Positions 13,951 through 25,172 of a stretch of 64,000 bases of DNA are shown here, in pieces. The stretch covers positions 32,276 to 96,275 of the forward strand of contig NZ_DASPLS010000072.1 of NCBI RefSeq assembly GCF_035627455.1. Reading direction: 5' to 3'. Position numbers and translations under genes: made by a program. The first letter of the stretch is position 1; every line of letters starts with the position of its first letter. The DNA comes from Noviherbaspirillum sp. (lineage in GTDB: Bacteria > Pseudomonadota > Gammaproteobacteria > Burkholderiales > Burkholderiaceae_D). The notes beneath the pieces are model-generated. The model worked only from the letters and a program-made list of their open reading frames with translations. It had not been told where the DNA came from and searched no databases.

Positions 13951-14628
13951 ATGAAGACCTATGTCGTCGGCGGCGCGGTGCGCGATGCGATGCTCGGCTT
14001 GCCGGTGCAGGACCGCGACCACGTGGTCGTCGGCGCCACGCCCGAGCAGATGGCGGCGCTCGGCTTTCGCGCCGTCGGCAAGGACTTCCCGGTATTCCTG
14101 CACCCCGACACCCAGGAGGAATACGCGCTCGCGCGCACCGAACGCAAGACCGCGCCCGGCTACAAGGGGTTCGTGTTCCATGCGGCGGCCGACGTGACGC
14201 TGGAGCAGGACCTGGTGCGGCGCGACCTCACCATCAATGCGATGGCCCAGGCCGAGGACGGCAGCATTGTCGATCCTTTCGGCGGCCAGAAGGATTTGCA
14301 GGCGCGGCTGTTCCGCCACGTGTCCGACGCCTTCATCGAAGACCCGGTGCGGATCCTGCGCGTGGCGCGCTTTGCGGCGCGCTTCACCGATTTCAGCGTT
14401 GCACCCGAGACCAATGCGCTCATGCGCCGCATGGTCGAAGACGGCGAGGTCGATGCGCTGGTGCCGGAGCGCGTGTGGCAGGAATTGTCGCGCGGGCTGA
14501 TGGAAGCGAAACCGTCGCGCATGTTCGGCGTGCTGCGCGACTGCGGCGCGCTCGCCCGCATCCTGCCGGAACTGGATGCGCTGTGGGGCGTCCCGCAACG
14601 GGACAAGCAGCATCCTTCTCAGGACTAG
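13951..14628 (+). pseudogene. cca: CCA-adding enzyme, 5' part, truncated at the island junction
   Basis: [50 protein letters not shown]. Ends [15 protein letters not shown] where the family continues into the HD domain (about 400 aa full length). Confidence 0.88.
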
Positions 14629-14902
14629 CAATCAACGATGTCTGCTTCCAGGAGCGTGGTCGAGGCGCAGGCAAGGCCGTGACGAGGGGCTGTCTTACTT
14701 GCGCGCCGCCATGAACTCGTACGATGGAAAGTATGCCGGAGTGCCGGCTTTCATGCTTCTTCCGTTGTGAAAGTGGTTAAAGAGACATCGAGCGGCAGGA
14801 GTGCGAGTGCGGGGTTTTGTTCGCACTCGCCACTAACCACGGTTAGTCTGCAAAAAGAGGCGAGGGGAGGGCGCCGGGATGGCAGCGCACCTCGGTTCGC
14901 CT

Positions 14903-15235
14903 TTAATTGACTACCTCTATCATCGTCACGGTGAGCTTGCCGCCCACCATCTCGGCGACGAAGTTCACCTTGTCGCTAACCGCCAGCCGTTCGAGTTGTG
15001 TGGGGTCCAAAACACTGAATGCCATTGTCATTGGCCCCATCCCGAGGTTCTTCAAGTCGCCATGCTTGATGGTGACTTTCTTTGCAGCCTTGTCGACCTT
15101 CCGCACAACACCCTCGGAGACTGGTCCGCTTGGCTTGGAACGGTGCGAGTCGTGGTTATGATGCTGGGCACCAGCCGGCAGTACAAAGGAAAGTCCAAAT
15201 GCAACCGCGGCCGCGAGACTGACGAGCGTTCTCAT
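14903..15235 (-). CDS. CusF-like periplasmic copper-binding protein
   Basis: Signal peptide; KVTIKHGDLKNLGMGPMTMAF (H..M.M) motif. Confidence 0.88.
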   Translation of the reverse strand: MRTLVSLAAAVAFGLSFVLPAGAQHHNHDSHRSKPSGPVSEGVVRKVDKAAKKVTIKHGDLKNLGMGPMTMAFSVLDPTQLERLAVSDKVNFVAEMVGGKLTVTMIEVVN

Positions 15236-15249
15236 CTAGATTCCCCTCT

Positions 15250-15693
15250 TTAGTCGTGATGGCTGAAGACACGGGTCCGGCGGTTTCCGTCAACCAGCAA
15301 GACGTCGTACGAGTCTTTTCGGGATCCTTCCATGCCTGGAGAGCCCATTGGCATGCCAGGAGCGGCAAGGCCCTTTGCGTTGGGCCTTTCTGCAAGGAGG
15401 CGCTTGATATCGGCTGCGGGAACGTGCCCTTCAATGGCATAACCCGCGACCACACCGGTGTGGCACGACCCCAAATCATTGGGGATGCCGTGCTTTTCAC
15501 GATAGTCAGAAGGATTCGCGACATTATGGGTTCTCACGGTGAAGCCGTTACTTTCCAGATGCTTAACCCAATCGCCGCAGCAACCGCAGTACGCGCTCTT
15601 GTAGACGTCGATAACAGGTGCGGCGGCACTTGCAAGTACCGGGGCGGTGAGTAGCGCAGCCATTGCGGCTTTCAGTAGAAGTTGCGATTTCAT
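15250..15693 (-). CDS. DUF411 (CopG-like) periplasmic metal-binding protein
   Basis: YKSAYCGCCGDW, SCHT, EGHVPA, PGMPMGSPGME. Confidence 0.92.
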   Translation of the reverse strand: MKSQLLLKAAMAALLTAPVLASAAAPVIDVYKSAYCGCCGDWVKHLESNGFTVRTHNVANPSDYREKHGIPNDLGSCHTGVVAGYAIEGHVPAADIKRLLAERPNAKGLAAPGMPMGSPGMEGSRKDSYDVLLVDGNRRTRVFSHHD

Positions 15694-15696
15694 GAT

Positions 15697-16212
15697 TTAA
15701 CCTTTCAACACTTTGATTTTTCCAAACATCCCGGCTTCAAAATGCCCGGGAATAAGGCATGCGAAGTAGAAATCGCCCGCCTTCGTGAACTGCCAGACAA
15801 TGTCACCCTTTTGACCTGGCTCTACATGCGCGGATGACGGGTCATCGTGTCGAAGTTGACGCTGCTGGGACATTGCCTTGCCGTGAGCCTTTAACTCGTC
15901 CATCGTGCCGAGCACCATTTCATGCAAAAGCTTTCCCTTGTTCGTCACAACGAAGCGGATGGTTTCTCCTTGCTTCACGCTTACGGCGGCCGGACCAAAG
16001 CGCATGTCATCAGTCATCTCGACAGGAAGCGTGCGGCTAACTTTCCTCGCATTTCCCGGCTTGCCGAACATGTCGGCTTCCGGGGCATGCGCAGCGTTAT
16101 GAGACGTGCCTTGGCCGTGAGACCCGGCGACGGCAAGGGCATTGGTCGAGGCAAAGCTGAAAGCGATTACGACAGGCGAAATCACAGCGGCAACGGTATT
16201 CGTTTGAGTCAT
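15697..16212 (-). CDS. Cupredoxin/plastocyanin-like periplasmic protein
   Basis: MTDDMRF, HEMVLG, FACLIPGHFEAGM type-1 Cu ligands. Confidence 0.9.
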   Translation of the reverse strand: MTQTNTVAAVISPVVIAFSFASTNALAVAGSHGQGTSHNAAHAPEADMFGKPGNARKVSRTLPVEMTDDMRFGPAAVSVKQGETIRFVVTNKGKLLHEMVLGTMDELKAHGKAMSQQRQLRHDDPSSAHVEPGQKGDIVWQFTKAGDFYFACLIPGHFEAGMFGKIKVLKG

Positions 16213-16394
16213 CAGAAGTCCTTCCTGGTCATATTGGTACTCGGGCGCGATTCGCTGCGAATGCAGTCGCCACCCGGGGTATGGAACCACCGGCAGACCA
16301 TGCGCTGGCTATAGCGGGAATGTCGGTGACGGGTGAAGCTGGGGCGTCGAGCTAGGTTGCCGGGATGCGCGAACGCATCCCGCACAAGCTGGCT

Positions 16395-16808
16395 TTAACC
16401 GTGGAAGTACCGAGGAGGCCGTTCCAAGCCGGCCGGGATATGGCCGGTAAACGCGATCGGAGGGCGAGAGGTCACTGCCTCAGAGCCGGCGAAACGCTCT
16501 GCCCGGAGAAGACTTGACGGCGGCGCAACAGCGCCGATAAAACATGCCGAAGTACCGCAGCCAGTGCCCTTCAGGTGGCTTTGTCCATCGGCCTGCCCTT
16601 TATTGCTGCAGTGGTCACTGCCGCTTGCCGATAATTCATCATGGGCTTGAAGATGATGGGAACGGTCCTGATGATGTTTCATCTCGGCAGTCATTTCTGA
16701 CGGCGAGTGAGGACCGGTCGCACAAAACATGTCGCCAGCCGCCATCCCTCTCAATGGGAGAGAAGCAATGACGAGCAGAATCAACAGTGTTTTGAATATG
16801 CGGTTCAT
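16395..16808 (-). CDS. CopL/CzcI-like secreted His/Cys-rich protein, first ORF of the cop operon
   Basis: Signal peptide LLVIASLPLRGMAA, His-rich middle, CGTSAC, C-terminal ERPPR. Confidence 0.7.
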   Translation of the reverse strand: MNRIFKTLLILLVIASLPLRGMAAGDMFCATGPHSPSEMTAEMKHHQDRSHHLQAHDELSASGSDHCSNKGQADGQSHLKGTGCGTSACFIGAVAPPSSLLRAERFAGSEAVTSRPPIAFTGHIPAGLERPPRYFHG

Positions 16809-16855
16809 TACCGGGCAAGTGGCTGCAACGAAAGCGTCGGTCAGCTTTTCCGAAA

Positions 16856-16886
16856 AGAATAAACCTTGCTACGGGGGGAAGGTCAA
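16856..16886 (-). promoter_or_regulatory. CueR/MerR-type sigma70 promoter with 19-bp spacer
   Basis: Minus strand reads TTGACC-TTCCCCCCGTAGCAAGGTT-TATTCT; dyad ACCTT..AAGGT as in the E. coli copA CueR box. Confidence 0.85.
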
Positions 16887-16977
16887 GAAGAATCCGGGCG
16901 CTCCTTGACTTGTCCCCCAAAGCTGGCGTGCTGGCCCTTCTCGGTGTAACCTATTGGAAGTTTCTCGTTCGATTTAT

Positions 16978-17334
16978 ATGCGACGTTTTTTTTGCATTTT
17001 GATGATGTTGCTGCTGCCGCTGCATAGTTTTGCTATGCAGGGCGGCTGGTATTCGTCCGCAAGTGCATTTGACATCAGCCATGAGGTGGACCACCTGACA
17101 GGTGCCGCGCATCACCATGATGACCACCATGGTTCGGTTCATTACGATAATTCGAGCGACTCCAGCAGTCATTTCGCCGAACACTCTGCAGGTCATTCGT
17201 GCGCGGCGCTGCCGAGCACGGTTTGCCCGCCCCTGGCCATTGCGTTGTCCAGCGCAGCTGTTCCCGAAGCCCGTCAGTTCATCCCGGATCCCATTCCCGA
17301 GCGCTTGCAGCGCCCCCCAAAATCCCTCGGTTAA
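16978..17334 (+). CDS. CzcI-like secreted His-rich protein, first ORF of the RND operon
   Basis: Signal peptide, HEVDH..HHHDDHH, C-terminal PDPIPERLQRPPK. Confidence 0.75.
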   Translation: MRRFFCILMMLLLPLHSFAMQGGWYSSASAFDISHEVDHLTGAAHHHDDHHGSVHYDNSSDSSSHFAEHSAGHSCAALPSTVCPPLAIALSSAAVPEARQFIPDPIPERLQRPPKSLG

Positions 17335-17393
17335 TTCACCGAGGGCATTCCGCACTTTCCGAGTTTTACCCGTTGAGCGTCGCTGGGCGTTTT

Positions 17394-17426
17394 CGCGCTT
17401 AGTACGCGCTTAGTACGCGCTTAGTC
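17394..17426 (+). repeat. Three tandem copies of 11-bp CGCGCTTAGT(A/C)
   Basis: Read directly; 45 bp upstream of the TolC-family start. Confidence 0.9.
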
Positions 17427-17470
17427 CGTTTGCCTTCGGCCAGTTTTTCTGGATCCCGAATGGAGAACAT

Positions 17471-18694
17471 ATGCGTAAAGAATTAACAAAGCATCATCTG
17501 TGCTTTGCGCTAGCACTTGCACTGGGCGCAGCGTCGGCGCCGGCGCTGGCGCAGAGCCGACCGGCTGACCTGAAGGCGGTACTGGAAGCTGCATGGCAAC
17601 GGTCACCGCAAGCCAGGACACTGGAAGCGCGACGGGACGAAGCAGCGGCGGGCAGAGAAGCCGCGCAGTCCTGGATAGCGGGTTCGCCTGCAGTTGGCCT
17701 TTCCCAAAGAACCGACCGTTGGACGAAGCGCGAAGGGGTGCGCGAAACGGAGGTTTCCCTTTCAACACCTATTTGGCTGCCCTCTCAAAAGGCTGTCCGC
17801 CGCGCCCAGGCCGACATAGGCACCGAAGACCTGGAGGCGCAGATAGCCAATGCACGACTTTCGCTGGCAGGCGAAGTACGGGAGCGGCTTTGGGCAGTAG
17901 CGGCTGCCAGGGAAACATTGGACGAGGCGAAATCCCACCAAGAACATTTGGAAGCAATGACTGAGGAGGTCATGCGACGTGTTAATGCAGGCGACCTGGC
18001 AAGAACAGACGGAATGCTCGCGCAGCAAGAAGCGCTTGCCGGGAAGGCTGCCGTCGTTGAAGCCCAAGTGAAGCTGCAGGAAGCCTTGACGCACTACACG
18101 ACGTTGACCGGCCTGAGCGACGTTCCGCAGCTCGAGCCAGAACGAATCGGCGCCGAAATGCGAGACCCGCATCCAAGGCTGCTCGCGGCGAAAACAGCTG
18201 TCCGGCACGCGCAGGCGTCAATGAACGTGGTGAGCAAGTCACGCAGCGAGCCACCGACGGTTGGCGTGGCAATGCGAAGGGAACGGGACGGAGCTGCAGT
18301 CGATGCCGCTTCAAGCATTACGTTTGCAGTAGAGATTCCGATTGGGACGAATGCCCGAAACCGGCCTTTGGAAGCCGCTGCTCGAACCCTGATCGCAACA
18401 GCGTCGGCGGAATATGCCCAGGTAGAAGCATCACTGCGGGATGAAGTCGACCTTGCGCGCCGAAAAGTGCTGGCATCGCAACAGACACTGGAAACCGCGT
18501 CCTCGCGCGCCGCATTGGCCCGTGAACATGCGCGCCTGATAGAAAAAGCGTTCAGGGTCGGCGAGCGAGGACTTGCAGAGATGCTCCGTGCCCGGACCGC
18601 CGTGCACGAAGCCGAAGTTGCGGAGCGCCAGCAGCGCGTGGCCGTTGGTCTTGCACACGCTCGCCTGAATCAGGCATTAGGAATCTCACCATGA
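17471..18694 (+). CDS. TolC/CzcC-family outer-membrane efflux protein
   Basis: Signal peptide, repeated OEP helical pattern, position in an RND operon. Confidence 0.88.
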   Translation: MRKELTKHHLCFALALALGAASAPALAQSRPADLKAVLEAAWQRSPQARTLEARRDEAAAGREAAQSWIAGSPAVGLSQRTDRWTKREGVRETEVSLSTPIWLPSQKAVRRAQADIGTEDLEAQIANARLSLAGEVRERLWAVAAARETLDEAKSHQEHLEAMTEEVMRRVNAGDLARTDGMLAQQEALAGKAAVVEAQVKLQEALTHYTTLTGLSDVPQLEPERIGAEMRDPHPRLLAAKTAVRHAQASMNVVSKSRSEPPTVGVAMRRERDGAAVDAASSITFAVEIPIGTNARNRPLEAAARTLIATASAEYAQVEASLRDEVDLARRKVLASQQTLETASSRAALAREHARLIEKAFRVGERGLAEMLRARTAVHEAEVAERQQRVAVGLAHARLNQALGISP

Positions 18695-19233
18695 AAATCC
18701 TGAACATCATCTGGCTCTTCTTTGCCCTGACTTCTACTGCATATGCCCATGGTGACGAGGACCACTCCAAGGACGGCACGCCGGCCGCCCAAGCACAAAG
18801 TGCGGGACAGCCGCGTGTCGAAACGTTTACCGAGGCCTTTGAACTGGTGGGCCAACTGCAGGGAAAAGAGCTATCTGTCTTTATTGATAAATACGAGACG
18901 AACGAGCCCGTCTTGAACGGCAAGCTCGAAGTCGAGTTGAACGGCCTGAAGTCGGTGGGAAAGTATCGGCCGGAGCGTGGTGACTATGTCATTGCCGACG
19001 AGGGATTCATCAAAGCGCTGGCTGCGCCAGGCAAGCATGCACTTGTCTTCACACTGTCGGCGGCGGAGGAAACTGACCTTCTGGAGGGCACACTTGAAGT
19101 CCAACCGGCCGTCGAGCATGAAACAAACACACAGTTTCCGTTGGCATGGGCAGGCGCAGGACTGCTTGCTGCGCTTGCTTTGATAGCCCTGGCCGCAAAG
19201 CGCCGCCGTTCCACACATCCGACGGGGAAATAA
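18691..19233 (+). CDS. Hypothetical periplasmic protein with N-terminal HGDEDH and C-terminal TM anchor
   Basis: ATGA overlap with upstream gene, signal peptide, hydrophobic C-terminus plus KRRR. Confidence 0.7.
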   Translation: MKILNIIWLFFALTSTAYAHGDEDHSKDGTPAAQAQSAGQPRVETFTEAFELVGQLQGKELSVFIDKYETNEPVLNGKLEVELNGLKSVGKYRPERGDYVIADEGFIKALAAPGKHALVFTLSAAEETDLLEGTLEVQPAVEHETNTQFPLAWAGAGLLAALALIALAAKRRRSTHPTGK

Positions 19234-19235
19234 AC

Positions 19236-20354
19236 ATGCTTGACAAGATTTCATATTCAATCATTGGTTTGATCGTTTCCGCACTCTCGTCGGCAGCAAT
19301 CGCGGGGCCAGGGGCCCACGGGCCGAATGGCGAGCATTTGGACGGCCCGGCGGCATCAAGCGTAACCGGATTGGCGCGTTTGCCGGACGGGAGCGTGAAT
19401 GTGCCCAAACTCGCACAACGGAGAATGGCAATTCGCACCGTCATGGCGGGCGAAGCCGAGCATCCGCGCACCGTCGAACTGAACGGCCGCATCAGCATCG
19501 ACCCCAATGCCGGTGGCCGGGTGCAAGCACCGTTTGCCGGCCGGGTTGAGGCCGGACCAAAGGGGCTGCCGGTAGCTGGCGAGCGCGTGGAGAAAGGTCA
19601 GGTTCTCGTACATGTTCGACCAGTGGCGGGCGCCATCGAGCGCAGCAATCAGCAGGCCCAGCTCGTCGAACTTCGGTCCAACCGTCAGTTGGCTGAGCAA
19701 CGAGTAAGGCGGCTCGAGTCGCTTGAAGGTACCGTTCCCCAAAAGGAAATCGAGGCGGCAAAAGCCGAGCTGACAAGCCTGACGGGGCGGGAAAAGGCAG
19801 TTGCAAGCAGTATTGGGGGCAACGAGGCTATCACGTCGCCCGCCTCTGGAGTCATTGCTGCCGCAAACGTCCTCGCAGGCCAGATTGTCGAGGCACGCGA
19901 TGTCCTTTTTGAAATCGTCGACCCCAGCCGGATGATGGTTGAGGCACTCACGACGGACCCGGCACTCGCTGGACGTATCGATAGTGCCACGCTTGCCGGT
20001 ATCCCTGGCGTCGGCCTCAGCTTGTTAGGCGGAGGTCGAAGCCTTCGCGAGGGAGCATTACCTCTTAACTTTCGTGCTTCCGTTAAAGATGCGGCGCTGG
20101 CCGTTGGCCAGCCGGTGACAGTTGTGGCGAAACTGACCGAGAAGGTGAAGGGAATTGCGTTGCCTGCCGAGTCCGTTGTTCGCAATCCTTCAAACGAACC
20201 GGTTGTATGGATTAAGGCGGGCGCAGAGCGCTTCGTCGCCCAGCCCGTGGAAATGCGCCCGCTTGATGCAAAGACCGTTGTTGTGGTGAAGGGGCTGTCC
20301 GCCGAGAACCGTGTTGTGAGCTCTGGCGCGGCACTAATCAACCAGATCAGGTGA
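19236..20354 (+). CDS. RND periplasmic adaptor (CzcB/CusB-like MFP)
   Basis: [36 protein letters not shown]. Confidence 0.88.
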
Positions 20355-20364
20355 GGTCGAACAA

Positions 20365-23300
20365 ATGTTTAACTCGATTGTTCGATTCAGTCTGAGTAAC
20401 CGGTTATTCGTGCTGGTTGCCGCATTACTCCTGGTGGTGTACGGCACCCTGATGGCTTCCCGTACTCCTGTGGATGTCTTTCCGGACTTGAATAAACCGG
20501 TGGTCACGGTCATGACGGAAGCAGGCGGCATGGCCCCGGAGGAGGTCGAACAGCTTGTGTCATTCCCGATTGAGACGTCACTCAATGGCATGCCGGGCGT
20601 GACGCGGGTTCGCTCGGTATCCGGCGTCGGACTCTCTATTGTGTACGCGGAGTTTGACTGGGGGACGGACCTCTACCGCAACCGCCAGCTTGTGGCCGAG
20701 CGCCTTGCCTTGGTGAAGGAGCAGCTGCCGGGCGGAATCACCCCGATCATGGGGCCGGTGTCGTCCATCATGGGCGAAATCATGTTGATTGCCCTGCCAA
20801 TCGACGTTTCAAAAGCAAGCCCGATGCAGGCACGGGAGTATGCCGACTTCGTCCTGCGCCCGCGCTTGCTGTCGATTCCTGGTGTCTCCCAGGTCATTCC
20901 GATTGGCGGCGAGGTGCGCCAGCTTCGCGTCGAACCCGATACGGCGCGAATGGCGCAGTTCAATGTCACCCTCGACCAGATAGCAACGGTCCTCCAGGGA
21001 TTTGCGACCAACACCAGCGGCGGCTTTATCGACCTGCACAGTCGAGAATACTTGATCCGCAACCTTGGCCGGACCACCCGGGTGGAGGATATGAAAGGCC
21101 TTGCCGTCGCCTTCCGGAACGGTACTCCGGTTCTGCTGGAACAAGTGGCCTCCGTCAGATATGCGCCAGCGTTCAAGCGAGGTGATGGCGGCATGAACGG
21201 CCTGCCCGCGGTTATCGTAAGCGTGCAGAAGCAGCCGGCCGCCGATACGGTCAAGCTGACGCGGGAAATTGAAAACGCACTGAAGGAACTGAAGCAGGGC
21301 CTGCCCGCAGGGCTGTCCACGCCCGAAGTCCTGTTCCGACAGGCCGATTTCATCGAGGCGTCCATCGGCAATGTGGCCGAAGCATTGCGAGACGGCGCCA
21401 TCATGGTTGCCATCGTACTGTTCGCGTTCCTGTTGAACTTCCGGACCACTGCAATCTCCCTCATTGCCATCCCGTTGTCGCTTGCCGTTACCGCGGTCGT
21501 GTTTCACCTTCTCGGGCAGTCCATCAACGTGATGACCCTCGGAGGGCTGGCCATTGCAATCGGCGAGCTGGTCGACGACGCGGTGGTTGACGTGGAAAAC
21601 ATCCTGCGCCGACTCAAGCAGCGCAAGGCTGGCGAAGGCCCGCCGTCCGTCATGCACGTCATCTGGCAGGCTTCGGTCGAGGTCAGGTCCGGTATCGTCT
21701 ACGCGACTGTCATTGTCGTATTGGTGTTTGTGCCGCTGTTTGCATTGCCTGGCATCGAGGGCAGGCTCTTCGCGCCGCTCGGTGTGGCCTATATCGTATC
21801 CATATTGGCGTCGATGCTCGTGTCGATGACCGTGACACCCGTGCTGTCGTACTTCCTGTTGCCGCAAATGAAGCAGCTTGCACACGGCGACAGCCCTGTC
21901 GTCCGACGACTGAAGGCGTGGGATACGCGAATTCTGGAGTGGTCGTTTCCGCGCGTGAAAGGCATCCTTGCCGGTGCCGCATTGGTTGTGATCGGCGCTG
22001 CAGCCACGGTCCCGTTCTTCCCACGCGCCTTTTTGCCTCCGTTTAACGAGGGCTCCCTGGTCATGGGCATGACGTTCACACCCGGCACTTCGCTCGGGGA
22101 GGCAAACCGCATGGGCGCACTGGCGGAGACGCTCATCAGGGAAGTGCCGGAGGTGTCGAAAGTCGGCCGCCGAACCGGGCGCGCGGAGCTCGACGAGCAT
22201 GCGGAAGGCGTTCATTCCTCGGAAATCGATATCGACCTGAAGCGCTCAGAGCGGAACCGCGAAGAGGTCATGGCCGACTTGCGCAGCAAGCTGTCCGTCA
22301 TACCTGCGTCGATTGCGATCGGGCAGCCCATCTCGCATCGCCTTGACCACCTGTTGTCCGGTGTTCGCGCGCAGATTGCTCTCAAAATCTACGGAGACGA
22401 CCTCGATACCCTGCGCGGGCTCGCCGAGGGACTGCGCGGAAAGCTGACAGCTGTGCCGGGGCTGGTCGACTTGTCCGTTGAACGACAAGTGCTTATCCCG
22501 CAAATCAAAGTCCGGGTCGATTACCGGAGGGCGGCGCAGTACGGCCTGGCGCCGGGCCAGGTACTGCAGGCACTGGAAACGTTGTCGGAAGGCGACCGGG
22601 TAACGCAGGTTGTCGACGGGCCTCGCCGGTTTGACCTGATGGTCCGACTGCCGGACCAGAATCGTTCACCGCAGGACTTGTCGCGCGTCATGCTGGACAC
22701 GCCGGCCGGCCGGATTCCCCTGTCGGAGATCGCGGCGGTCGAGGAAAGCGACGGGCCGAACCAGATTGGCCGAGAAAACGGTCGTCGCCGGATCGTCGTG
22801 TACGCGAATACCGATGGCTCGGACATGTCGCGGGTGATCGGAGATATCCGCAGGGTTATCGCGTCAACTGCGCTGCCCGGCAGCTACTTCATCAGCATTG
22901 AAGGGCAGTTCCAGGCGCAGGAGCAGGCAACCAGGCTGATTATCGGCTTGTCGCTGGTGTCATTGATGATGATTTTCCTGGTGCTGTATTCACGATACCG
23001 TTCAACTGCCCTGGCACTGGTCATCATGGGAAATATCCCGTTCGCGTTGATCGGCAGCGTCGCCGCGATGTGGATCGCGGGCATTTCCTTGTCGGTCGCG
23101 TCAATGGTGGGTTTCATTACCTTGACCGGCATCGCGACACGTAACGGCATCCTGAAGGTCAGCCACTACATCAACCTGTGCAAATTTGAAGGCGAAACCT
23201 TCGGCACGAAGATGATTATTCGCGGCTCACTGGAGCGCTTGACGCCGGTGTTGATGACGGCGCTTGTCGCCGCATTTGCACTGGTGCCGCTGCTCTTGGC

Positions 23301-23469
23301 AGCGGACGCCCCTGGCAAGGAAATTCTGCACCCGGTGGCAGTCGTGATTTTTGGCGGTCTCGTGAGTTCAACAATCCTCGACTCCCTGCTGACACCGTTG
23401 ATTTTCTGGCTTGTGGGCCGCAAGCCCCTGGAGACGCTGGTTGCCGGACAATCAGAGGAAGCGTATTAA
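20365..23469 (+). CDS. CusA/CzcA-family heavy-metal RND permease
   Basis: [21 protein letters not shown]4 [27 protein letters not shown]. Confidence 0.95.
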
Positions 23470-24578: not shown

Positions 24579-25172
24579 ATGGGCAGCGACAACGACACCG
24601 TGAAAGAAAAAACCTTTGGACAGCTCGTGATGGAAGCCCTCGATATCGCTTCGCAGAAAAACGCGTCTTTAGCTGTTCGCTTTGCTTGCCTGGTCTCCGG
24701 CATCGGGAAGAATCAGCTAGCCGGTAATCAACAAGTCGACCAAGTTAGCGGGGCAGGACGCGCGAGAATCCTCGACCTGTGCGAGCGGTTGCGCGTGCCC
24801 ACCGAGTGCAAGGAGCTGGCATTGACCATGGAGCGAGAGCATGCTCAAGTCGATGACAGTCCGAGTTTCAATGCGGAAGAGATAGTAAATTTGCTCGAGC
24901 GGTGTGATGCAATTCGAAAACCTGGCCGGTTTCGCGAGCTCCTGACGGCATGTGAATGCATCGCGCAAGCGTACGATGAAAAAGGAGATTTTCAGTACCA
25001 AGCTTCGCAGCTCTTAAATGCTGCCGCAGACGCAGTTCGCAGAGTTGACACGGGCGCAATCGCAAAGAGAGCTGCCGCAGATGGAATGCAAGGCCCAGAC
25101 ATAGGCAAAGCCGTACACTCCGCCCGAGTGGAAATTCTCAAACAAACCTTACAGCCGGGATCTGGCATCTGA
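24579..25172 (+). CDS. Divergent CCA-enzyme C-terminal domain protein with degenerate HD motif
   Basis: LAVRFACL, LCERLRVPTECKELA, EH, LLERCDAIRKPGRF, DTGAIA, GPDIGKAVHSARV align to the CCA C-half; LTHDLGK is replaced by LVSGIGK. Confidence 0.8.
   Translation: MGSDNDTVKEKTFGQLVMEALDIASQKNASLAVRFACLVSGIGKNQLAGNQQVDQVSGAGRARILDLCERLRVPTECKELALTMEREHAQVDDSPSFNAEEIVNLLERCDAIRKPGRFRELLTACECIAQAYDEKGDFQYQASQLLNAAADAVRRVDTGAIAKRAAADGMQGPDIGKAVHSARVEILKQTLQPGSGI

Follow-up and report, generated by a model that had tools for sequence, protein, structure and literature searches.

Metal-sensing stalling leaders are, to our knowledge, a recent discovery, and only CutF and CruR have been studied, which respond to metal in opposite directions and through differing read-outs. 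The copper-sensing members, i.e., CruR, CutF and the "CutF-like" proteins CopL, CzcI, CusD and SilD, were published between 2022 and 2025. In Rhodobacter capsulatus, CutF undergoes co-translational export and acts as a sensor of copper in the periplasm; the ribosome stalls at its C-terminal proline motif, and the stem over the next ribosome-binding site is opened (PMC9973294; bioRxiv 10.1101/2025.02.05.636593). CruR of Bordetella pertussis (Bp2923), a DUF2946 protein, carries a RAPP arrest motif, and copper relieves the arrest, upon which Rho terminates transcription before the next gene (PMC9426467). The arrest of CruR was later demonstrated by toeprinting (PMC12992588). Here, we analyze two divergent operons at 14.9–23.5 kb of a 64,000-nucleotide stretch of DNA from Noviherbaspirillum sp. 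(contig NZ_DASPLS010000072.1, positions 32,276 to 96,275 of the forward strand), the whole of which is called the window below. Each operon opens with a small open reading frame (ORF), ORF-L on the left and ORF-R on the right, which ends in an Arg-Pro-Pro (RPP) motif.

ORF-L (16395–16808, minus strand; 137 amino acids) is a CopL-like exported His/Cys-rich leader ending in GLERPPRYFHG*, with its RPP codons, CGG CCT CCT, at 16413–16421 on the minus strand. ORF-R (16978–17334, plus strand; 118 amino acids counted from the ATG) is a CzcI-like exported His-rich leader ending in RLQRPPKSLG*, with its RPP codons at 17311–17319 on the plus strand. The two starts face apart across a common region of 169 nucleotides (nt). 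The N-termini of both ORFs resemble Sec signal peptides, as judged by eye (MNRIFKTLLILLVIASLPLRGMAA / MRRFFCILMMLLLPLHSFA), and the middles of both are rich in His and Cys, confirming the back-to-back arrangement and the C-termini described in an initial annotation made from the sequence alone.

A CutF-like protein has been defined as one of fewer than 150 residues with a signal peptide, a metal-ligand motif and a PP no more than 15 residues from the C-terminus, encoded by the first gene of a metal operon and followed by a long spacer, with the further requirement that the next gene lie on the same strand within 1000 nt (PMC9973294). In that study, which gathered its proteins by iterative searching from CutF seeds, CopL, CzcI, CusD and SilD were counted as CutF-like, and the commonest neighbors of such genes were outer-membrane efflux genes. 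Both ORFs of the window share this anatomy: they have 137 and 118 residues, PP stands 6–7 and 5–6 residues from the end, the spacers measure 182 and 136 nt, and a signal peptide is recognizable by eye. We read both ORFs as cis-acting sensor leaders of the CutF/CopL/CzcI kind, probably not stable chaperones, with the right operon controlled via a four-segment RNA relay, and we put the probability of this reading at roughly 55%. The initial annotation had likewise suggested translational metal sensors rather than chaperones; the CutF-like anatomy, the lack of a predicted fold and the relay behind ORF-R speak for that suggestion, although the concept itself was already in print as a hypothesis (PMC9973294; bioRxiv 10.1101/2025.02.05.636593).

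Leader proteins and the RPP motif

RPP is present in 119 of 121 ORF-R relatives, with identities down to about 38%, and is followed by four residues in 97. Among 148 representatives of the ORF-L family, which are the best matches and mutually less than 50% identical, R(x)PP occurs in 146, with five residues after the motif in 126. This conservation is far above chance, and the motif nearly always has 4 or 5 residues between it and the stop. When 74 diverse ORF-L relatives were aligned, no column was invariant apart from those of one Cys and of R-P-P. Across hundreds of sequences, the protein middles vary freely while RPP and its spacing stay conserved.

The putative metal ligands differ between the two leaders. 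The window copy of ORF-L has C-x4-C, as against CxxCxxCC in most relatives, and its proline motif is ERPP; in ORF-R, a His block is accompanied by a single Cys, and the proline motif is QRPP. The distance from ligand to proline motif in the ORF-L family is about 40–43 residues, resembling the spacing in DUF2946 proteins, and the His-rich block is strongly conserved in ORF-R relatives. AlphaFold2 models built from the family alignments showed nothing folded beyond the signal helix (predicted local distance difference test, pLDDT, 63 and 57; predicted template-modeling score, pTM, 0.21).

Much of this anatomy is shared with CutF (cutFOG), which is likewise a small Sec-exported protein that acts in cis and whose gene opens a copper operon, with a metal-ligand motif about 40 residues ahead of its C-terminal proline motif; EF-P (elongation factor P), a modulator of the CutF stall, is encoded in this genome. 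However, CutF has PPP and CxxxC, whereas the present leaders have (E/Q)RPP and, in ORF-R, His ligands, and the window ORFs show no detectable DUF2946 match. The parallel with CruR, which was drawn in the initial annotation with a description of CruR (DUF2946, RAPP, copper) that is correct (PMC9426467), holds for the anatomy of the leader: an exported Cys-motif protein, a ligand-to-proline-motif spacing of about 43–45 residues, a motif few residues from the stop, a long G+C-rich spacer with a stretch of C over G, and no fold in models, as reported for CruR. It does not extend to class membership, as neither ORF is a DUF2946 protein and the motif is RPP, not RAPP. CruR also differs in that its RAPP stands three residues before the stop and that copper turns its operon, an uptake operon, off, and the DUF2946 gene of the present genome lies on another contig.

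Membership in DUF2946 was rejected on several grounds. Neither ORF matched Pfam DUF2946 (PF11162) at E ≤ 1, and only 5 of the 74 ORF-L relatives matched it at E ≤ 0.01. An hhalign comparison with 30 DUF2946 proteins of the same bacterial family gave probabilities of 0.25% and 0.05%. Neither ORF has a CxxC together with a RAPP at its C-terminus, about 45 residues apart, whereas the 30 DUF2946 proteins, which come from related genomes, all end in Q(S/P)R(A/G)PP plus 2–3 residues. The ORFs also fall outside the RAPP class of arrest peptides (SecM/ApdA/ApdP/CruR): here Arg directly precedes PP (E-R-P-P, Q-R-P-P), whereas members of the RAPP class need an Arg two residues before PP, for which no other residue can stand in, and accept none but small residues at the position next to PP (PMC12992588). 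The sole true DUF2946 (CruR-type) gene of this genome (L001, 1489–1965, minus strand) ends in RAPPAHS and is followed by a gene for a 323-residue outer-membrane-like protein in place of a TonB-dependent receptor. In one other genome (G025, contig C203; loci L078 and L055), a true DUF2946 gene stands back to back with an ORF-L-type leader, about 340 nt apart.

Similarity to CopL of Xanthomonas and Stenotrophomonas and to CzcI, CusD and SilD of Cupriavidus metallidurans lies in the position as first genes of copper or heavy-metal operons. The scores, however, are far under the family cut-offs. ORF-L reached 20.6 bits (E 5e-4, aligned over 7–132 of 137) against the NCBIfam CopL_fam model (NF033807), with a cut-off of 40, and ORF-R reached 26.2 bits (E 1e-5, residues 1–97, the RPP tail lying outside) against the NCBIfam CzcI family (NF045614), with a cut-off of 100; 32 of 74 and 18 of 74 family members match the CopL and CzcI models, respectively. 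CzcI and CzcI2 were reported to lack a C-terminal proline motif (PMC9973294), unlike the ORF-R relatives with their almost invariant RPP, and in C. metallidurans copper raised cusCBAF, not cusD (PMC7563307). The sequence tie of both ORFs to the CutF seeds runs only via weak CopL, CzcI or DUF2946 matches. A profile search with ORF-L found 2480 cluster representatives at E ≤ 0.001; its family is present in 191, and that of ORF-R in 44, of the 301 genomes that were sampled within the same bacterial family, and the two families are mutually related (hhalign probability 96%). Both are new, as yet nameless branches of a known kind of leader.

These data bear on whether the ORFs are instead working periplasmic metal-binding proteins, e.g., buffers, chaperones or sensor partners as proposed for CzcI, in which RPP would be a protein motif and the RNA stems would merely tune coupling or mRNA stability. 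The weak CopL and CzcI model matches, found in a share of both families, the strongly conserved His-rich block of ORF-R, the length of 118–137 residues and the doubtful intrinsic stalling power of RPP are all in keeping with such a function. However, the models predict no fold, the ORF-L family is invariant at one Cys and RPP only, and the constant distance to the stop, together with the fixed synonymous codons adjoining the motif (see below), are features of RNA and ribosome; Xanthomonas CopL and CutF, moreover, act in cis only (PMC9973294). We regard a function as free-standing metal-binding proteins as unlikely, although the mature proteins may have some role of their own.

The codons of RPP itself are often ones which are rare in this genome. 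In ORF-R relatives, the Arg codon is CGA or CGT, both rare here, in 13 of 19, and the first Pro codon is CCT in 10 of 19, compared with 9% genome-wide; ORF-L and all three of its close relatives use CCT CCT. Such codons might add to pausing, where rarity is by the usage of this genome and not by the relatives' own.

A predicted four-segment RNA relay behind ORF-R

In the trp, ermC and cat leaders, a ribosome stalled on segment 1 allows segments 2 and 3 to pair in place of 1:2 and 3:4. In ermC, the regulated gene has its ribosome-binding site within segment 4, and segment 2 is covered once a ribosome has come to the stop codon. The same four-segment logic is found behind ORF-R, where the ribosome-binding site again lies in segment 4. 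Segment A (17324–17330, plus strand) is CCCTCGG within the Ser-Leu-Gly codons and pairs with segment B (17339–17347, plus strand; CCGAGGGCA), which lies shortly after the stop and can pair with A or C. Segment C (17431–17439, plus strand; TGCCTTCGG) lies about 90 nt 3′ of B and can pair with B or D, and segment D (17456–17468, plus strand; CCGAATGGAGAAC) contains the Shine-Dalgarno sequence GGAGA (17462–17466) of the outer-membrane efflux gene, whose start codon is at 17471, i.e., 136 nt behind ORF-R. Within the domain closed by B:C lie three tandem 11-nt units (17394–17426, plus strand; CGCGCTTAGTA), of which close relatives have two to three copies.

In the window, the A:B hairpin, with the stop codon (17332–17334) in its loop, has a predicted energy of −14.5 kcal/mol (z −5.1), and the C:D stem, which buries the Shine-Dalgarno site of the efflux gene, has −15.7 kcal/mol (z −2.55). 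B:C is a 9-base-pair (bp) long-range helix that becomes the minimum-energy fold once A is omitted, and the right spacer is more structured than its shuffles (z −2.67). The leader end and spacer were aligned across 24 loci. In this alignment, 97% of cells are paired in A:B, 92% in B:C and 84.5% in the core of C:D, compared with 33–57% in slid controls, and both sides have changed in 3 of 7, 4 of 9 and 2 of 7 pairs, respectively. The three mutually exclusive helices have thus been kept by compensatory change, as expected of a four-segment attenuator. The coding sequence of segment A is also biased at its synonymous sites: Leu is CTC in 14 of 14 leaders, compared with 23% in this genome, and Ser is TCC or TCT in 15 of 15, whereas in those sequences RPP itself shows free variation in its Arg and Pro codons.

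The position of the ribosome would determine which of these helices can form. When the P site is occupied by the first or the second Pro codon, its reach is about 15–16 nt 3′, which covers A and ends before B, whereas most of B is covered once the ribosome stands at the stop codon. Across the 24 loci, the predicted cost of opening the ribosome-binding window is 7.6 kcal/mol for the free RNA, 4.3 kcal/mol with a ribosome at RPP and 6.9 kcal/mol with a ribosome at the stop, and in 22 of 24 loci the cost with a ribosome at RPP is lower than that of the free RNA. The corresponding values for the analyzed DNA itself are 5.4, 2.3 and 4.3 kcal/mol. When B was replaced in silico by its complement, the effect of a ribosome at RPP fell from 3.6 to 0.5 kcal/mol. 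In these calculations, segment 4, i.e., the ribosome-binding site, is thus opened by a ribosome on segment 1 and not by one at the stop.

We propose the following mechanism for the right operon. Each ORF would be translated and exported co-translationally, and when the ribosome has come to Arg-Pro-Pro, the His/Cys ligand region would lie about 40–80 residues behind, at or past the membrane channel. By analogy with CutF, metal bound there would lessen the pull on the chain, leading to a longer dwell at RPP. With no ribosome present, A:B and C:D would form, and C:D would bury the Shine-Dalgarno site ahead of the outer-membrane efflux gene. While one of the two Pro codons is in the P site, the ribosome would hide A only, such that B:C could form, D would be freed and the pump operon would be translated, whereas a ribosome running on to the stop would also hide B, leaving the site shut. 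That ribosomes stall here, that the stall depends on metal and that metal turns the operon on is what we infer from the described systems; the relay geometry, which makes sense only if the ribosome dwells at RPP, supports the dwell. This geometry would also explain the fixed distance of four, sometimes five, codons between RPP and the stop. In ORF-R-type loci in which RPP stands 4–5 codons before the stop, the spacers are about 105–145 nt long.

An alternative is that the relay is real and is driven by ordinary translation of the leader, through coupling or as a sensor of translation rate, without any specific metal-dependent arrest at RPP. Any ribosome passing A would, by geometry, briefly free B, and RPP alone is a weak pause site. 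However, a moving ribosome has B covered after four codons at most, with A:B folding back locally, and the near-invariant RPP and the conserved metal ligands would be left unexplained. We consider this account very unlikely.

Several points weigh against a metal-sensing arrest coupled to the relay. On its sequence, RPP differs from RAPP, and the RPP tripeptide was reported to be non-stalling in an E. coli reporter, whereas RPPP gave a strong stall (PMC4176338), so any arrest must depend on the upstream context (IPAGLE / PDPxPERLQ) or on export. At 118–137 residues, the ORFs are large for mere leaders. In five relatives the stop has been lost and 14–17 residues follow RPP, and the spacing is thus not absolute. 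The helices were first spotted by eye in the same alignment that was later used for the counts, the 24 loci are related, so that the counts overstate independence, and segment A is also under coding constraint. The unpaired probability of GGAG alone showed no opening (0.29 vs. 0.27); this read-out was then replaced by the free-energy cost of opening up the entire ribosome-binding window, which did show an effect. For the left operon, only a small opening effect (5.3 to 4.0 kcal/mol) is predicted in the window, and the left spacer, taken over its full length, does not exceed its shuffles in structure (z −0.43). The long structured spacers noted in the initial annotation are, accordingly, long on both sides and structured on the right.

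The sensor-leader reading with its relay can also be set against the known read-outs. As proposed by analogy for ORF-R, a stall in CutF opens an RNA stem over the ribosome-binding site of the next gene, with metal as the on signal; however, CutF has a short spacer whose stem is melted directly by the stalled ribosome, whereas ORF-R has 136 nt and a relay of three alternative helices. Unlike in the trp, ermC and cat leaders, the stall signal would be extracytoplasmic metal acting via the exported chain, not tRNA charging or an antibiotic, and the ORF-R leader exceeds 100 codons, with segment 1 formed by its last three. As far as the searched literature shows, the ORF-R relay is a read-out variant without prior description, and a search of Rfam at E ≤ 1 over 14500–19000 found no known RNA family. 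More tentatively, and at somewhat less than even odds in our judgment, the gap between RPP and the stop may be set by the RNA and not by the protein, and the relay may be a "transmembrane attenuator" for RND heavy-metal efflux operons, in which external metal would cause a nascent-chain stall that unmasks a ribosome-binding site about 130 nt away, with a non-RAPP, non-polyproline (E/Q)RPP motif whose arrest would be wholly context-dependent.

The left operon and Rho-dependent attenuation

Behind ORF-L, a spacer of 182 nt leads to the CopI-like gene (ATG at 16212). A 9-bp hairpin with a UUCG loop (16361–16382, minus strand) lies in this spacer exactly where the initial annotation had placed it, at a measured distance of 12 nt from the ORF-L stop as compared with the 13 nt given there. 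It has a predicted energy of −19.4 kcal/mol (z −2.8 vs. dinucleotide shuffles), forms the core of a longer stem beginning directly after the stop, and is kept in three close relatives, partly via G-C to G-U changes. In the wider ORF-L family, a stable extended stem starts 6–12 nt after the stop, with z below 0 in 20 of 20 loci (mean about −1.6) and z ≤ −2 in nine. The hairpin is real; however, it and the extended stem are beyond the reach of a ribosome at the ORF-L RPP, six codons before the stop. When a counterpart of the right-hand relay, or direct pairing of the leader with the ribosome-binding site, was sought in the left operon, the RPP region of ORF-L (CCT CCT) and the codons behind it showed some complementarity to the Shine-Dalgarno site of the CopI gene. 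This pairing is strong in one relative, metagenome contig L094 (−22 kcal/mol; z, about −3.7), whereas the window has only a weak form of it (−14.2 kcal/mol; z, about −1).

The hairpin is followed by a C-rich, G-poor stretch (16299–16360, minus strand; about 29 C vs. 11 G per 60 nt), which on its composition is a candidate Rho-loading site. In Rho-dependent attenuation of the CruR or TnaC type, a ribosome at, or queued behind, RPP would shield such a C-rich site, and its release would let Rho terminate transcription in the spacer. This could happen by itself, for which the left operon is the most plausible place, or in combination with the relay. Stretches of C over G occur in both transcripts, on the left from +22 to +96 after the stop (29 C vs. 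11 G in 60 nt) and on the right from 70 nt before the end of the ORF to 30 nt into the spacer (25–27 C vs. 10–12 G). The spacers of 136–182 nt are similar to the 162 nt of cruR-bfrG, for which Rho termination has been shown (PMC9426467). A scan of both spacers found no sigma-70 promoter-like site and no intrinsic terminator on the coding strand; its single terminator-like site is on the opposite strand, inside the efflux gene, and neither the left hairpin nor the C:D stem leads into a U-tract. However, the support for Rho is a matter of base composition, the left C-rich stretch lies past the reach of a ribosome at RPP, copper turns the CruR operon off, contrary to what resistance genes would call for, and the covarying A:B, B:C and C:D helices are left unexplained. 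As an account of the locus, Rho-dependent attenuation therefore seems improbable to us, although for the left read-out taken by itself it is the leading candidate.

Transcription of the left operon probably starts from a predicted CueR/MerR-type promoter (16856–16886, minus strand), with TTGACC, a 19-bp spacer containing CCTTCC-N7-GCAAGG, and TATTCT. Across four loci, no other block of the divergent region is as well conserved as this one. It presumably resembles the E. coli copA promoter. No MerR-type regulator was found in the window, and ten are encoded elsewhere in the genome. The conservation of this promoter suggests that left transcription is probably controlled by copper and that the leader is a second layer. 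In our reading of ORF-L as a sensor leader, the CueR-type promoter would set transcription, and ORF-L would add control via the post-stop stem, the C-rich stretch with Rho, or both.

Genomic setting and significance of the two leader families

Downstream of ORF-L, the left operon (14903–16212, minus strand) encodes a CopI-like cupredoxin (15697–16212), a DUF411/CopG protein (15250–15693) and CusF (14903–15235). The efflux operon downstream of ORF-R (17471–23469, plus strand) encodes an outer-membrane factor (17471–18694), an anchored protein of 180 residues to which no function is assigned (18691–19233), a membrane-fusion adaptor (19233–20354) and an RND pump of the CusA/CzcA family (20365–23469), all on the plus strand; the pump is closer to CusA (467 bits) than to ZneA (400 bits). 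The 180-residue protein carries a signal peptide, an HGDEDH motif and, at its C-terminus, a hydrophobic anchor that bears a basic tail; it matches no family in Pfam or NCBIfam, and is also encoded in contig L094.

The back-to-back layout of two leaders was found again in three metagenome contigs (L094, L095 and L098), in all of which the gene order behind ORF-L, i.e., CopI-like, DUF411/CopG and CusF, is identical. ORF-R relatives are followed by an outer-membrane efflux gene in 30 of 30 loci. In the loci of ORF-L relatives L039–L063, the leader is mostly followed, about 100 nt on, by a gene for a small exported protein of about 110–130 residues with a conserved "DPADP...VP...Y.SAF..Y" motif, not by CopI. 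A search of a plasmid collection gave one weak match for ORF-L and none for ORF-R. The G+C content at 15–25 kb is 0.53–0.62, compared with 0.64–0.69 in the flanks, which fits the island noted in the initial annotation. Two halves of a CCA-adding enzyme gene (13951–14628 and 24579–25172) stand on either side of this low-G+C metal island, and the latter ORF aligns to positions 229–404 of the 409-position CCA-adding enzyme model.

The relay, if true, would be a third read-out for metal-sensing stalling leaders; it would explain the conserved spacing of RPP and show how a weak pause motif can be turned into a switch. The element could also serve as a compact sensor of periplasmic metal. Existing annotations name ORF-L and ORF-R as hypothetical proteins or "cobalt transporter". 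Both families, of which that of ORF-L alone has about 2,500 representative clusters and is present in roughly two thirds of the sampled genomes, stand first in copper-resistance or heavy-metal efflux operons, and such ORFs are better read as regulatory leaders than under either of these names.

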